From assembly GCF_003334405.1 (NCBI RefSeq), contig NZ_QOWM01000001.1: DNA of 64,000 bases. One strand, given 5' to 3'. The stretch is from Escherichia coli (GTDB taxonomy: Bacteria > Pseudomonadota > Gammaproteobacteria > Enterobacterales > Enterobacteriaceae). The position numbers and the translations under genes are program-made. Below are positions 43,626-50,133 of the stretch, piece after piece. The stretch's first letter is position 1, and every line of letters begins with the position of its first letter. A model generated the notes under the pieces. The model worked only from the letters and a program-made list of their open reading frames with translations. It ran no database searches and was not told the origin of the DNA.

Positions 43626-45629
43626 TCATCCTTGTTGCTGAAGCATGGGGAATAATTGTTCGCACAGCAAAACGCAGTTATTCATTGCTTCTACCCGTGC
43701 CTCGCTTTCTGTATTACGAAATTGTCCCAATACATGTGCCAGCCGATAAAAACCCACCGCGGTGAGGTCATTCGCCAGCAACTCTGCCTGACCAATAGCA
43801 CTCTGTTCCTGATAGCGCCAGCCGTTATGGAGCAGTTGAATAAGTAATGCCTGGCAGCGCATCAGCAACTGATGAGCAGTAGACGGCACAGGCAGAACGC
43901 TGACAGAAGGTAGTGATGCCACCACAGGCGCAGTTTCTGCGTCCAGCGCCCAGGCACGAGTCTTTGTCATCATTACCTGTGGTTCCAGTGTCAATTGCCC
44001 ATCAACAAAACTGACAAAGCCAGAAACCAGACACACGGGGTCGTCTGTTTGTTGCAAAAGCGCCGCCATGCGTTCAATGGCATAAGGCGCGCTGGCTGAG
44101 GCTGGCAGTGATAACGTCAGCAGATTATCTTCACCTTCGCCGCTGATTACCTGCGCATCCAGCGTCTGGCGGCTGCTATCCCAACCGAGCGAAATACACT
44201 CAGCGACCGGCAGAATAAATAAGTTATCGACCTGATTAAGAGGCCGTATGCAGGAGGGGGGACGCTGGCGTAAATATTCCCGCAAAGCCACAATGCCCGA
44301 CTGGCGTAACGGCGCGCTCAACATTTGCCAGGCATCAGGCGACAGCGGCACAACGCTGCTTAAGCGGTTGCGGGTAGCTAACAGCAGCTCGCCATCGGCA
44401 CTGCGTTTTGCTGCTTGTGAAACAATTTGCCCACCCGCCAGTGCGCCAGCCTGAAAACTAAACAGCCGACGCGTAGCTGCCGGTGAGTTTTCCTGTTCAC
44501 TTCGCGGCCAACTGCGCGAAAGGTGCAAAATACTGCCGGTGTCGGGATCGGTAAACCAGATGCGTAAACCATAATGCTCAATATCCTGCCAGCAACGCAT
44601 ACCTAAAGACACCAGCCGCAGATGATCAAGCTTTGCTTCTCCGGCAATGCCAGAGCCAACGACCGTGCGCCACGGCACAGGAGGAACTTCACCAACACTG
44701 TCGCGCCGCGCCATCTCTTGTGCGCAATTTAATCGACTGTTTAATGCCGCAAGCTGACGTAAGCATTCTCCGGCATGATAGTGGCTGGCGCGGGCGTGGA
44801 AGGCATCAACGCTGGCGCGCAGTTGCCGTAGCGATTCACTCACCCATCGCCAGTTGCAGCGTTCCGCTGCTTGCTGCGCGCGGCTGAAAGCGGCCTCGTA
44901 GTGAATAAGCGGCTGGCTGATGCCGCCCAGCCATAATGCCTGGCTTAGTTGCTGAACATATTGACGACACGTTTTGCCTTCTTCGCTGGCAAACAGATCG
45001 TCAGATGATGTGACGTGTTCGCTGCGCATCTGCCAGATTAAATGAGTCAATTCCGCTTGCTGCGCTTTTGCCTGGACAAAGGCCTGTACTGCCAGTACGA
45101 CATGTTCGCAAAGTGTGCCTTCAATACAATCACAACGGGCGAAACGAATGCTGCTACGGGAATAAAAACGCACATCGCTCATCGGTAAGCGGGCAGAGGG
45201 AATTTCGCCCGGCGTACAGAACAACTCAATGGTGATGCCTTTAGCGACCAGCGCCTGCGCGCGTTTGCGGATGGCATCGGGCAGGGTAGCCAGTTCTTCC
45301 AGCCAGATTGCCGGATCCCACTCTTCTTCTTTTTCTGTGGGCTGGACGGTGGCACAAAGTCGTTGATAACTTAACACCAGCATCACGCGATGACGGCACA
45401 TGCCGCTGGCCCCGCAGCTGCACTGAGCCTCTTTCAGTGCCTGGCCGTTCGCCAGCTGGGTACGGACACCGTCACTGAAGGTGGCGATTAAAGCGCCGTT
45501 CTCATGGCTGATCTCCGGGACGTTGCCATTTTCCAGTTCCTTAAGACTGCGCTTAACAAAACCGGCATTGCTTAACGCTGTCAGGGCCTGCGGTGTCAGT
45601 TCTAATAATTCCGGACGTAGTGAATTCAT
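43626..45629 (-). CDS. yehQ: SWIM zinc-finger protein YehQ
   Basis: ORF 43626..45653; start placed at Met9 where ATG overlaps the yehP stop (ATGA); two CxC..CxH motifs (CSCGASGMCRH, CDCIEGTLCEH). Confidence 0.8.
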   Translation of the reverse strand: MNSLRPELLELTPQALTALSNAGFVKRSLKELENGNVPEISHENGALIATFSDGVRTQLANGQALKEAQCSCGASGMCRHRVMLVLSYQRLCATVQPTEKEEEWDPAIWLEELATLPDAIRKRAQALVAKGITIELFCTPGEIPSARLPMSDVRFYSRSSIRFARCDCIEGTLCEHVVLAVQAFVQAKAQQAELTHLIWQMRSEHVTSSDDLFASEEGKTCRQYVQQLSQALWLGGISQPLIHYEAAFSRAQQAAERCNWRWVSESLRQLRASVDAFHARASHYHAGECLRQLAALNSRLNCAQEMARRDSVGEVPPVPWRTVVGSGIAGEAKLDHLRLVSLGMRCWQDIEHYGLRIWFTDPDTGSILHLSRSWPRSEQENSPAATRRLFSFQAGALAGGQIVSQAAKRSADGELLLATRNRLSSVVPLSPDAWQMLSAPLRQSGIVALREYLRQRPPSCIRPLNQVDNLFILPVAECISLGWDSSRQTLDAQVISGEGEDNLLTLSLPASASAPYAIERMAALLQQTDDPVCLVSGFVSFVDGQLTLEPQVMMTKTRAWALDAETAPVVASLPSVSVLPVPSTAHQLLMRCQALLIQLLHNGWRYQEQSAIGQAELLANDLTAVGFYRLAHVLGQFRNTESEARVEAMNNCVLLCEQLFPMLQQQG

Positions 45630-46762
45630 GACTGAAGATTCTCCGCAAGCCATGATGCCAGTTCGCCCGGTGTCATGGCGGCTATTTGTGCGCCGACATT
45701 AACCAGCGCCTGGGCCGTATCGCGGTCATAGCAAGGCGTTGCTGTGCTATCGAGCGCCGCCAGTCCCAGCACTTTGATGCCGCTCTGGACACACTTTTTC
45801 ACCTGATGCGTCAGCAATGATGATGAACCCCCTTCGTAAAAATCGCTCACGAGGATAATGACGCTTTTTGCTGGTTGTTCAATAAGTTGCCGACCATATT
45901 CCACGGCACTGGCGATATTGGTTCCGCCGCCTAATTGCACTTTCATTAATAACTCTACCGGATCGGCAACGTCTGCCGTGAGATCAACCACACTGGTGTC
46001 AAACGCCACCAGATGGGTACGAATGCCGGGTAACTGCCACAAACAGGCCGCCATCACCGCAGAGTGGATCACCGAGTCCACCATCGATCCGCTTTGATCA
46101 ACCAGTAAGACCAGTTGCCATTGTTCGCTTTGGCGTTTAATGCGGCTGTTAAAGCGGGGGGATTCGATATACAACTTGCCGTGTTGCGGGTGCCAGTGTT
46201 GCAGGTTGGCGCGAAGAGTACTTTTGAAATCAAAGTTTCGCGCCAGTGGAATAAATGAGCGGCGACGGCGATCGCGGACACCAGAAAAAGCCTGACGAAC
46301 TTCCTTTGCCAGGCGCGCCATAATTTCTTCAACAACCTGGCGCACTATCCGGCGGGCGGCAGCCAGTACTTCGGGATTCATCAGATGTTTGGTGTGCAAA
46401 ACGGCGCGTAGCAGGCTTTCAGAAGGCTGCATACGTTCCAGCACGTCGAGATTTGTCACCACATCTTCAATGCCGTAGCGCAGTACGGCATCGCTTTCCA
46501 GCCGCTCAATCACCTGTTGCGGAAACAGCCTGTGAATACAGTTAATCCACTCAGGGGTGGTGAGATTTGAGCCACCTAATCCACCGGAACGTTCACCACG
46601 CTGGAGCCGTTCAGGATCGCGCCCATACAGCCACTCCAGCGCGTGGTCTATCTGCCGGGCGTTGTCATCCAGCCCACAAAGCGTCGTTTCTGCCGCTTCG
46701 CCAAGAATTAATCGCCAGCGTTGTAGCTCACGGGTGGTCAGAAGATCGTTCAGTTCAGACAT
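45626..46762 (-). CDS. yehP: von Willebrand factor A (VWA) domain protein YehP
   Basis: ORF 45626..46990; start at Met77 giving 378 aa; MIDAS-like DQSGSM motif; overlaps the yehM stop by 8 nt. Confidence 0.85.
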   Translation of the reverse strand: MSELNDLLTTRELQRWRLILGEAAETTLCGLDDNARQIDHALEWLYGRDPERLQRGERSGGLGGSNLTTPEWINCIHRLFPQQVIERLESDAVLRYGIEDVVTNLDVLERMQPSESLLRAVLHTKHLMNPEVLAAARRIVRQVVEEIMARLAKEVRQAFSGVRDRRRRSFIPLARNFDFKSTLRANLQHWHPQHGKLYIESPRFNSRIKRQSEQWQLVLLVDQSGSMVDSVIHSAVMAACLWQLPGIRTHLVAFDTSVVDLTADVADPVELLMKVQLGGGTNIASAVEYGRQLIEQPAKSVIILVSDFYEGGSSSLLTHQVKKCVQSGIKVLGLAALDSTATPCYDRDTAQALVNVGAQIAAMTPGELASWLAENLQS

Positions 46763-49034: not shown

Positions 49035-49044
49035 GCATCTTTCC

Positions 49045-50133
49045 TCACGGCAGGCGGTGGCGGGCTTGATAATAAGCCTGCCAGTGAGCTTCTTTATGTG
49101 TGGCGACACGCTGTTCGAAGTAACGGCGCAGACGAGCGCGATCTTCTTCGTTATCTTTGACGATGGTTCCGGCAATACAGTCCACCAGGTCGGCAGGCTC
49201 CCCCGCGCGATTCGCTAAAAACCAGGCGCGGACGCCCACGGCGTGGGCCACGTTCACGGCTTCAGCCGTGGACATAATCGCTGTTAGTGTATCCATTGAC
49301 GTTTTCTTTTCGCCGTTGGCACGCAGATCGCGGAAGGTGCGGACCAGTAACTCCAGTACCGCGTCAGGCACTTTATGCGGAATACCGCTATGGGCCAGCA
49401 AACGCGCCGAAGCACTGGCGACAAGCTCCAGCTCCTGGGCGAAATCCATAATCGGAAAGACAGTTTCAAAATCGAAGCGACGCTTTAGCGCAGCACTCAT
49501 TTCATTGACGCCGCGATCGCGGGTATTGGCAGTGGCAATAATATTAAAGCCTTCTCGCGCATAGAGCTGACTGGCTTCACCAGTGAGTTCCGGCACCGTC
49601 ATCACCCTGTCAGAAAGCATGCCTAACAGACAGTCTTGCACTTCCAGCGGTGTACGCGTTATCTCTTCAAAACGGACGATTTTGCCGTCGCGCATTCCCT
49701 GGTAAAGCGGGGCAGGGACCAGCGCTTCCGTTGATGGACCATGATTGATAAGCAGGGCGTAGTTCCAGCCGTACTTGATTTGATCTTCGGTAGTAGATGC
49801 GCCGCCCTGGACGGTTAACCCGGCATCGCCGCTAATAGCGGTTGCCAGTAATTCAGACAGGAGAGATTTTGCGGTGCCAGGTTCCCCCACCAACATCAAA
49901 CCGCGTCCGGTGGCAAGAGTGACTAACATACGTTCGACAGCGGAGGGACTAATCACCACTTTACGGCTAATATTTTGCGCGCTATCGCCAAGGATAAAAG
50001 CACGGGCCGCAGGCAAACTTAACTGCCAACCGGGCGGGCAAGGTGCGTTATCATTTTGTTTTAATTTTGCCAGTTCATCGGCGTATAACACAGCAGCAGG
50101 CGGACGCTGCAGATGATTATTCTGCGGTGACAT
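49045..50133 (-). CDS. yehL: MoxR-family AAA+ ATPase YehL
   Basis: ORF 49045..50199; start at Met23 (MSPQNNHLQRPP...) giving 362 aa with aggga RBS; Walker A GEPGTAKS. Confidence 0.9.
   Translation of the reverse strand: MSPQNNHLQRPPAAVLYADELAKLKQNDNAPCPPGWQLSLPAARAFILGDSAQNISRKVVISPSAVERMLVTLATGRGLMLVGEPGTAKSLLSELLATAISGDAGLTVQGGASTTEDQIKYGWNYALLINHGPSTEALVPAPLYQGMRDGKIVRFEEITRTPLEVQDCLLGMLSDRVMTVPELTGEASQLYAREGFNIIATANTRDRGVNEMSAALKRRFDFETVFPIMDFAQELELVASASARLLAHSGIPHKVPDAVLELLVRTFRDLRANGEKKTSMDTLTAIMSTAEAVNVAHAVGVRAWFLANRAGEPADLVDCIAGTIVKDNEEDRARLRRYFEQRVATHKEAHWQAYYQARHRLP

Follow-up and report, generated by a model that had tools for sequence, protein, structure and literature searches.

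The yehLMPQ operon and DUF4132 genes of Escherichia coli as a conserved MoxR-VWA system with a predicted TIKI-like hydrolase component

In Escherichia coli, the genes yehL, yehM, yehP, and yehQ form, together with the neighboring DUF4132 genes, one conserved system of five gene types that recurs across several phyla; we hold this architectural part of our findings with high confidence. The genes were studied in a 64-kb stretch of E. coli DNA (here called the window, whose numbering gives all positions), in which four minus-strand open reading frames (ORFs), in the order yehL-yehM-yehP-yehQ, fill 43626-50133. These are long-standing function-unknown y-genes, found in complete E. coli genomes at a frequency of about 96%, and a MoxR subfamily bears the name of YehL; the analysis provides as starting points five gene types rather than four, one predicted hydrolase-fold component, and one hypervariable component. 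With regard to function, our composite reading is that the system may be an ATP-gated, nucleic-acid-linked hydrolase switch that responds to foreign or damaged nucleic acid (i.e., in conflict or stress) rather than a device for metabolic-enzyme assembly, a reading that we put forward tentatively and at close to, but short of, even probability. The four genes are as follows:

49045-50133, minus strand: yehL, 362 amino acids, MoxR-type AAA+ ATPase (AAA_5), type member of the YehL subfamily
46755-49034, minus strand: yehM, 759 amino acids, DUF5682 protein
45626-46762, minus strand: yehP, 378 amino acids, VWA protein of the CoxE type with a metal ion-dependent adhesion site (MIDAS) and a conserved helical N-domain
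43626-45629, minus strand: yehQ, 667 amino acids counted from the ATGA start

The original prediction for this stretch had described a co-expressed MoxR/VWA/SWIM operon of no known function and had named synteny outside E. coli as one of its tests; the operon was upheld as real, no function was found for it in the literature searched, and synteny proved strong. A metagenome scan with a DUF5682 alignment gave 80 loci, which were annotated by hidden Markov models (HMMs) derived from seed loci, and we defined a distant set of 69 loci in which YehM shares no more than about 47% identity with the E. coli protein, using as denominators the loci with enough flank. In this set, which covers Proteobacteria, Actinobacteria, and metagenomes, the order MoxR-DUF5682-VWA-SWIM is invariant: the gene directly upstream of yehM encodes YehL in 54/54 loci, the downstream gene encodes YehP in 49/50, and YehQ follows in 37/37. 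Of the 23 distant loci with full flanks, 21 had a DUF4132 gene in these flanks, either upstream or downstream and in 0 to 4 copies, with an N-terminal WGR domain on at least one DUF4132 copy in many loci; for eight other loci, Pfam DUF4132 was listed for the adjacent large gene, with WGR in five. The DUF4132/MolR genes, which had been regarded as a giant MolR-family operon that adjoins the yeh genes along with a type I toxin-antitoxin, are thus more than neighbors; both elements are present, and the MolR genes are a fifth, near-obligate component of the system.

Individual loci illustrate this arrangement. A Burkholderia locus encodes AAA_5, DUF5682, VWA_CoxE, and SWIM proteins, followed by a WGR+DUF4132 protein, and a locus of the actinobacterium Yinghuangia carries three DUF4132 genes, followed by AAA_5, DUF5682, VWA, and YehQ-like genes; the same five gene types were also found in several metagenomic genomes, and the system is present on a Streptomyces linear plasmid. 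In locus L092, from a metagenome-assembled genome (GCA_022841245.1), DUF5682 and VWA_CoxE are fused in a single protein of 1180 amino acids (10001-13543), which supports direct cooperation between YehM and YehP; a second AAA_5-DUF5682-VWA set follows 5 kb downstream of the fusion (18856-23468), behind a HEAT_2 protein. A Bacteroidota variant on a plasmid of Hymenobacter sp. HDW8 (L088, 5183-13422) encodes a SWIM-headed DUF5691 protein (1010 amino acids), an AAA ATPase, a 203-amino-acid protein, DUF5682, and VWA; no YehQ or DUF4132 homologue was found in this variant, and its DUF5691 protein is not detectably related to YehQ. A PDDEXK nuclease gene and a recombinase gene are adjacent to the Hymenobacter variant.

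The junctions between the four genes were confirmed from the ORFs and the junction sequence, in agreement with the tight packing that had been predicted. At the yehL/yehM junction, the yehL stop codon (TGA, 49047-49045) and the yehM start codon (ATG, 49034) are separated by a 10-nt gap, and GAGGAAAG overlaps the yehL stop; yehM and yehP overlap by 8 nt (ATGTCTGA), and yehP and yehQ share an ATGA overlap. An in-frame ATG upstream, at 45653, provides an alternative yehQ start that would yield a protein of 675 amino acids. Since 4-nt overlaps of the same type were seen again in the unrelated loci L004-L006, tight packing is a trait of the family rather than a product of chance. The GC content of yehL, yehM, yehP, and yehQ is 52-56%, as compared to about 50% for flanking genes.

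YehM, which had been thought to carry no recognizable motif, in fact matches Pfam DUF5682 over its full length (E = 1.1e-98) and contains an invariant residue set. An all-against-library search for relatives of YehM yielded 2283 cluster representatives at E ≤ 1e-3, and a 92-sequence alignment (A2) showed R10, H11, E35, H51, E83, D101, E143, R175, G199, and H202 to be invariant, and H12 and G200 to be conserved in at least 90% of sequences. The invariant columns cluster within the first 200 residues, with the pattern RHH..E..H..E..D..E..R..GG.H. An AlphaFold2 model of YehM (predicted local distance difference test [pLDDT] score, 93.9; predicted template modeling [pTM] score, 0.91) suggests an N-terminal hydrolase fold similar to that of TIKI, TraB, ChaN, and Ere proteins, an alpha+beta middle, and a HEAT/ARM-like helical C-terminus. 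On the basis of alignment A2 and the predicted model, the first of these domains was placed as follows:

48240-49034, minus strand: YehM TIKI-like domain, approximately amino acids 1-265

In the model, this domain is an alpha/beta fold with a parallel beta-sheet core, the fold that characterizes the TIKI superfamily, and the conserved residues are predicted to lie at or near C-terminal strand ends or on adjoining helices, with H11 (and H12) right after strand 1, E35 in strand 2, R175 on a helix, and GG.H202 after a later strand. Active members of the TIKI superfamily share a set of two His and two Glu residues and a nearby basic residue (PMC6254334). In YehM, the His-to-Glu and Arg-to-His spacings are 24 and 27 amino acids, respectively, as compared to 28 and 29 amino acids in RRSP (PMC6254334), a comparison by sequence spacing rather than by superposition. 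We infer from pattern and spacing that YehM may carry a site like the 2His/2Glu+Arg site of TIKI enzymes and may be catalytically competent. YehM differs from the members of this superfamily (TIKI, TraB/PrgY, RRSP, EreA/B, ChaN, and HopBA1) in having a large insertion that separates the Glu motif from the Arg motif and in being fused to approximately 500 amino acids of further domains, and no known superfamily member has been reported as the partner of a MoxR-VWA pair; in addition, some members (ChaN and PMT) are non-enzymatic, so that the activity predicted for YehM is not guaranteed.

The GEPGTAKS motif, the MIDAS-like DQSGSM motif, and the two CxC..CxH motifs that had been read from the window were all found in the translations. 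Motifs of the predicted motor and its predicted adaptor map to the following positions:

49864-49887, minus strand: YehL Walker A motif GEPGTAKS, amino acids 83-90, from the translation and invariant in 65 homologues
49663-49671, minus strand: YehL Walker B variant F155-E156-E157, in which EE replaces the canonical DE, invariant in all 65 homologues examined
46085-46099, minus strand: YehP MIDAS motif D222-Q-S-G-S226, from the translation and homologue alignment

YehL matches Pfam AAA_5 (E = 1.7e-34; amino acids 79-220, full model covered) and, weakly, Pfam bpMoxR (E = 0.002); its nearest sequences in PDB are midasin AAA modules (4e-10), followed by the MoxR structure 2r44 and by McrB. In addition to Walker A and FEE, the sensor-1 motif ATANTRD and the Arg motif KRRF are invariant in the 65 homologues. 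YehL is the namesake of one of seven MoxR subfamilies (PMC3893208), and, as judged from its profile, its motifs, and the nearby VWA gene, it is a MoxR-type AAA+ ATPase of the YehL subfamily. YehP matches Pfam VWA_CoxE across model positions 1-222 of 222 (E = 3.2e-72); in 53 homologues, the MIDAS elements D222xSGS, GGGT280N, and S306-D307 are invariant or nearly so. The C-terminus of YehP coincides with the end of the VWA domain, and homologues of 369-397 amino acids share this layout. With the Walker A, FEE, sensor-1, and Arg motifs and a full MIDAS all conserved, motor and adaptor are apparently active. Experimental records for yehP consist of a swarming phenotype and a +1 frameshift (PMC2790909). 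At yehP codons ~287-292 (45889-45904, minus strand), the window reads GTG GAA TAT GGT CGG C, which weakens an internal Shine-Dalgarno-like GGAG.

For YehQ, no Pfam family was found beyond SWIM, and the two SWIM matches are borderline (1e-3 and 0.2); among the 38 homologues collected, which are mostly encoded by the genes after the VWA gene in distant loci, 25 match at E ≤ 0.1. The following elements were located:

45390-45422, minus strand: YehQ SWIM-1, C70xC72x5C78xH80, invariant in 38 homologues
45102-45134, minus strand: YehQ SWIM-2, C166xC168x5C174xH176, common but not universal, lost in one actinobacterial homologue
43947-44639, minus strand: YehQ tandem OB-like barrels, amino acids 331-561, from predicted secondary structure and fold matches

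The predicted model of YehQ (pLDDT, 89.8; pTM, 0.86) comprises two SWIM units, a four-helix bundle (216-311), two beta-barrels (331-428 and 470-561) that each contain a helix, and helices bundled at the C-terminus. Tandem-OB nucleic-acid binders (p202 HIN1, baculovirus LEF-3, RPA70 DBD-AB, MNDA HIN, and POT1) make up nearly all of the top Foldseek matches, with approximately 240 columns aligned and probabilities of up to 1.0, but with E-values of 3e-3 to 0.1; at these moderate scores, amino acids 331-561 of the model appear to resemble the tandem OB folds of RPA, HIN, and POT1. A segment of 43 amino acids in YehQ (286-328, ~44646-44774, AGECLRQL...VVGSGI), which lies in the final helix of this bundle of four and in the loop behind it, varies among E. 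coli strains through in-frame deletion (623 amino acids, e.g., in Shigella sonnei) or duplication (709 amino acids); the segment starts with AGE, and a second AGE follows it.

Three DUF4132 paralogues lie upstream of yehL in the window (51698-62185):

51698-55330, minus strand: yehI, DUF4132 paralogue without WGR, 1210 amino acids, from the RefSeq annotation of the orthologue and a custom DUF4132 HMM
55340-58372, minus strand: extra WGR-DUF4132 paralogue, 1010 amino acids, with a WGR head, 39-44% identical to YehI
58385-62185, minus strand: MolR-like WGR-DUF4132 protein, 1266 amino acids, Pfam WGR 1.2e-18 (amino acids 6-69) and DUF4132 2.7e-16

Within E. coli, the operon and the DUF4132 genes vary to very different extents. 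The 7-kb yehLMPQ stretch is present over at least 80% of its length in 5203/5426 complete E. coli genomes (~96%), mostly at 95-99% identity and at one fixed site, and yehI is present in 5223/5426. By comparison, the gene for the 1010-amino-acid paralogue is full-length in just 408/5426 genomes, and the window's allele of the 1266-amino-acid gene reaches at least 80% query coverage in just 1630/5426, mostly at 80-90% nucleotide identity; in genomes without this allele, only the first ~200 nt, which encode the WGR head, match. The 1266-amino-acid gene is deeply polymorphic, and its product shares only 44% identity with that of its positional counterpart in strain 15.03CC. Sliding-window comparisons of WGR-DUF4132 alleles and paralogues gave identities of 86-91% for the WGR head, 15-45% for the middle ~750 amino acids, and 65-100% for the tail of ~350 amino acids, and these mosaic boundaries suggest recombination. 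Copy number varies as well, with two or three DUF4132 copies in E. coli and zero to four elsewhere. Two-paralogue strains have a single upstream DUF4132 gene, and its 3' half is approximately 95% identical to that of the 1010-amino-acid paralogue gene, which suggests gain or loss of the latter through inter-paralogue recombination.

Between species, the components diverge to different degrees. Amino acid identities between E. coli and Klebsiella-type or Burkholderia proteins, respectively, are 90% and 76% for YehL, 84% and 69% for YehP, 69% and 46% for YehM, and 62% and 34% for YehQ; for DUF4132 proteins, they are about 60% or less and about 35%, with 59-77% in the C-terminal 450-500 amino acids. 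Ratios of nonsynonymous to synonymous substitution rates (dN/dS), calculated by the Nei-Gojobori method both within E. coli and in comparison with orthologues from Escherichia sp. and of the Klebsiella type, are 0.03-0.07 for yehL and yehP, near those of the controls metG and btsS, 0.09-0.14 for yehM, 0.10-0.21 for yehQ, and 0.12-0.25 for DUF4132 genes. The motor thus evolves most slowly, followed by YehM and then by YehQ and DUF4132. Inactivated copies were seen in single strains, including a yehL frameshift in 15.03CC (L001, 19643-20730) and an IS100 insertion that splits yehQ in ETEC4073, the genome nearest to the window. In addition, a blaCTX-M-15 transposon has been reported to lie within the DUF4132 region of ST131 sublineages (PMC9334617). 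The K-12 copy of molR, a gene whose promoter is activated by BglJ-RcsB, is disrupted (PMC3950696). In an hns/stpA mutant, yehL and yehM were up-regulated, and H-NS was bound in the adjacent intergenic region (PMC3686432). Either the molR disruption (PMC3950696) or silencing of yehL and yehM by H-NS/StpA (PMC3686432) could explain missing phenotypes in K-12.

Comparison with known systems helps to define what the yeh system is and what it is not; on its features, it is a member of the MoxR-VWA systems. RavA-ViaA consists of a MoxR AAA+ ATPase and a stimulating VWA/MIDAS cofactor that are encoded in one operon and act in chaperone-like remodeling (PMC3893208), and the yeh system also pairs a MoxR ATPase with a VWA/MIDAS protein in an operon. 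However, YehL belongs to another MoxR subfamily (the YehL subfamily), and, whereas RavA-ViaA has two genes and known partners (LdcI, Nuo, and fumarate reductase), the yeh system adds three large components (DUF5682, the SWIM protein, and DUF4132) and has no known metabolic partner. The likeness to CoxD-CoxE lies in YehP: it has a MoxR ATPase as its partner, and its match to the CoxE-type VWA family runs the whole length of the protein and takes in the helical N-domain; by contrast, YehL matches AAA_5 only generically. No CO dehydrogenase, cox, or other metalloenzyme genes were found in the window or in other loci with annotated gene calls, and membership in the CoxD-CoxE maturation system was rejected because no client gene is nearby.

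A further parallel is provided by the ternary vWA-MoxR systems of Kaur et al. (2020, PMC7159879), in which a large protein, with a peptidase-type domain at its N-terminus and helical regions behind it, is the obligatory third partner of a MoxR-vWA pair. The yeh system resembles these systems in this combination, in the CoxE-like N-domain on the vWA protein (as in the iSTAND type), in a fast-diversifying partner, and in the weak bpMoxR match of YehL. It differs in that the third component is a DUF5682 protein with a predicted TIKI fold rather than VMAP-C, iSTAND, FtsH, or a beta-propeller, and in that YehP lacks C-terminal effector domains. We rejected membership in the four ternary conflict classes because the third component differs, the vWA protein is without effector domains, and effectors are not displaced; YehL, DUF4132, WGR, TIKI, and SWIM are not mentioned in PMC7159879. 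Finally, AAA_5 modules, a long HEAT-like region, and a MIDAS also occur together in midasin/Rea1, where ligand binding by the MIDAS allows the motor to pull protein off a nucleoprotein particle; midasin is, however, a giant single polypeptide of eukaryotes in which six AAA modules are fused, and it acts on pre-60S ribosomes, whereas the yeh parts are separate proteins. By analogy, midasin might resemble the yeh system in its possible working, which is not a matter of membership. The five-component unit, the TIKI-like DUF5682 domain, and the OB-like region of YehQ were not described in the literature searched.

MoxR-VWA pairs and midasin capture a peptide at the MIDAS, and the partner thus bound is remodeled by the AAA+ ring (PMC7159879, PMC3893208). 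By analogy, a partner would be held by the MIDAS of YehP through an acidic residue or peptide, and the YehL ring, driven by ATP, would pull on it or remodel it. The remodeled partners could be the large proteins of the system itself; in this scheme, YehQ and the WGR-DUF4132 proteins would act as sensor scaffolds that bind nucleic acid or another ligand, the hypervariable DUF4132 middle would be the source of specificity, and ATP-driven remodeling would gate the predicted YehM hydrolase, most likely a peptidase, which would then cleave a target. DNA or RNA is probably part of the trigger or substrate, given that nucleic-acid binding is typical of WGR (PARP-type), SWIM, and OB-like modules. The simplest explanation for a hypervariable middle between a conserved head and a conserved tail, in an intracellular protein, is a surface for recognition that is under pressure to diversify, and this tilts the balance towards a role in conflict or stress. 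A more specific version of the composite reading, in which the system would be an undescribed innate-immunity-like system with intracellular WGR-HEAT-like-DUF4132 proteins as polymorphic sensors for molecules of an invader, YehQ as a nucleic-acid reader, YehL-YehP as an ATP-dependent licensing switch, and YehM as a TIKI-type peptidase effector, is possible in our judgment but doubtful. If this version is true, the system would represent a new class of MoxR-vWA immune machine with protease output.

Several observations weigh against the composite reading of an ATP-gated switch. A search of PADLOC-DB v2 found no family at E ≤ 0.01 for YehL, YehM, YehP, YehQ, YehI, both WGR-DUF4132 proteins, or YehK. 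The loci show no defence-island context; on qualitative inspection of the loci for which annotated gene calls were available, the flanking genes differ from locus to locus and are mostly of a housekeeping type. A YehM homologue was found in just 38 of 72,556 plasmid records, mostly megaplasmids or mislabeled chromosomes, and in one dubious phage record, and in E. coli the locus is core, at a fixed site (5203/5426). No canonical toxic effector was found among the components. The catalytic role of the conserved YehM residues is predicted from pattern and spacing, and SWIM and HEAT-like modules can serve protein-protein rather than nucleic-acid contacts. The yeh architecture is also unusually constant when set against the effector displacement and variable architectures of the ternary systems described by Kaur et al. 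(PMC7159879). No experiment in support of an activity was found in the literature searched, where the yehP records on swarming and +1 frameshifting (PMC2790909) were the sole experimental notes on the four genes.

The rival explanations below overlap with the composite reading and with each other, and the probabilities that we attach to them are not meant to sum to one. One of these sees in the yeh genes a true defence against phages or plasmids, in which polymorphic WGR-DUF4132 proteins and YehQ would sense nucleic acid or proteins of the invader, the MoxR-VWA pair would act as a switch, and YehM would be a peptidase effector that causes growth arrest or inactivation of the invader; we regard this as fairly unlikely. 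The hypervariable middle of the WGR-DUF4132 proteins, their recombinant paralogues, and their presence/absence polymorphism fit such a role, as do the faster evolution of YehQ and DUF4132 relative to the motor, a wide but patchy phyletic spread, the GC difference between the four genes and their flanks, H-NS silencing (PMC3686432), the insertion of zor-orz toxin-antitoxin genes within the locus, and the parallel with vWA-MoxR ternary systems whose third component bears a peptidase (PMC7159879). However, the lack of any PADLOC match and of recurrent defence genes in the flanks, the scarcity of the system in plasmid and phage records, and its single fixed site in 96% of E. coli speak against defence, and no paper linking yehLMPQ or DUF4132 to phage defence was found in the literature searched. 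Of the suggestion in the original prediction that the operon is a candidate stress or defence system, the defence part is thus unsupported by the PADLOC search, the flanks, the mobile-element counts, and the core site, whereas the variability of DUF4132, the faster evolution of YehQ and DUF4132, and the rise of yehL and yehM in the hns/stpA mutant (PMC3686432) speak for a role in conflict. If the conflict reading holds, bacterial immunity would gain a MoxR-vWA system with a protease output.

Alternatively, the yeh system could be a dedicated maturation or assembly chaperone of the CoxD-CoxE, RavA-ViaA, NorQ-NorD, or CbbQ-CbbO type, in which YehL and YehP would activate a housekeeping client or supply it with a cofactor, with YehM, YehQ, and DUF4132 as assembly factors or client, in which case the giant DUF4132 proteins would represent a new class of client. 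The full-model VWA_CoxE match of YehP is consistent with this explanation, as is the fact that characterized MoxR-VWA pairs mostly act in maturation (PMC3893208, PMC7159879), and a core locus under purifying selection, off mobile elements and of constant architecture, fits it as well. Known chaperone pairs adjoin their client, however, whereas no metabolic client, enzyme, or cofactor gene is consistently adjacent to the yeh genes in loci with annotated gene calls (Pfam or NCBI). Hypervariable, mosaic, and copy-variable DUF4132 alleles within one species are unexpected for a housekeeping client, and the derepression of yehL and yehM in the hns/stpA mutant (PMC3686432) and the disrupted copies (K-12 molR [PMC3950696], 15.03CC yehL, and ETEC4073 yehQ) also speak against it, so that we consider a chaperone role unlikely.

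A third explanation, which we judge improbable, is a "split midasin" in DNA repair or nucleoprotein remodeling, in which WGR would read DNA ends, the OB-like barrels would bind single-stranded DNA, the AAA+/MIDAS pair would strip or process DNA-bound protein, and YehM would be a DNA-protein crosslink-type peptidase. The closest solved sequence relatives of YehL are midasin AAA domains, AAA_5, MIDAS, and long HEAT-like proteins are combined in the system, WGR is present, and the predicted tandem barrels of YehQ resemble those of RPA and POT1, in a core locus under purifying selection. The hypervariability of DUF4132 is nevertheless hard to reconcile with a repair factor, the OB assignment is moderately supported, and no SOS or repair genes were found in any neighborhood, with the exception of a DNA ligase domain gene near one locus. 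Lastly, a silenced, decaying remnant of horizontal transfer without present function in E. coli, for which H-NS silencing (PMC3686432), scattered pseudogenes and insertions (PMC3950696; PMC9334617), and the in-frame YehQ indel variants might be cited, is extremely improbable, as dN/dS values of 0.03-0.25 indicate that all genes are kept by selection, and the idea of decay is largely refuted by the range for the four operon genes (0.03-0.21), by retention in 5203/5426 genomes, and by intact catalytic-type motifs.

Snider and Houry (2006) reportedly noted the yehL neighborhood when they defined the subfamily. Between yehI and yehL, the window contains additional elements:

51317-51637, minus strand: yehK, ~105 amino acids, between yehI and yehL
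50245-50320 and 50855-50928, minus strand: OrzO-P antitoxin RNAs of the type I zor-orz system, Rfam 99.9 and 88.8 bits
50334-50384 and 50942-50992: divergent promoter-like sites

No PADLOC or NCBIfam family was found for YehK, which is absent from Klebsiella-type loci and not conserved outside Escherichia; the gene seems to be an insert specific to Escherichia that separates yehI from yehL. The zor-orz genes occur as two tandem copies, ~610 bp apart, between yehK and yehL. They account for the difference between the yehK-yehL spacer of 1.18 kb in the window and that of 306 bp in 15.03CC (L001), which has the two-paralogue layout, and they leave just ~110 bp for a yehL promoter. A terminator-like hairpin at ~50250-50270, inside the OrzO RNA, sets yehL apart from the upstream sequence.

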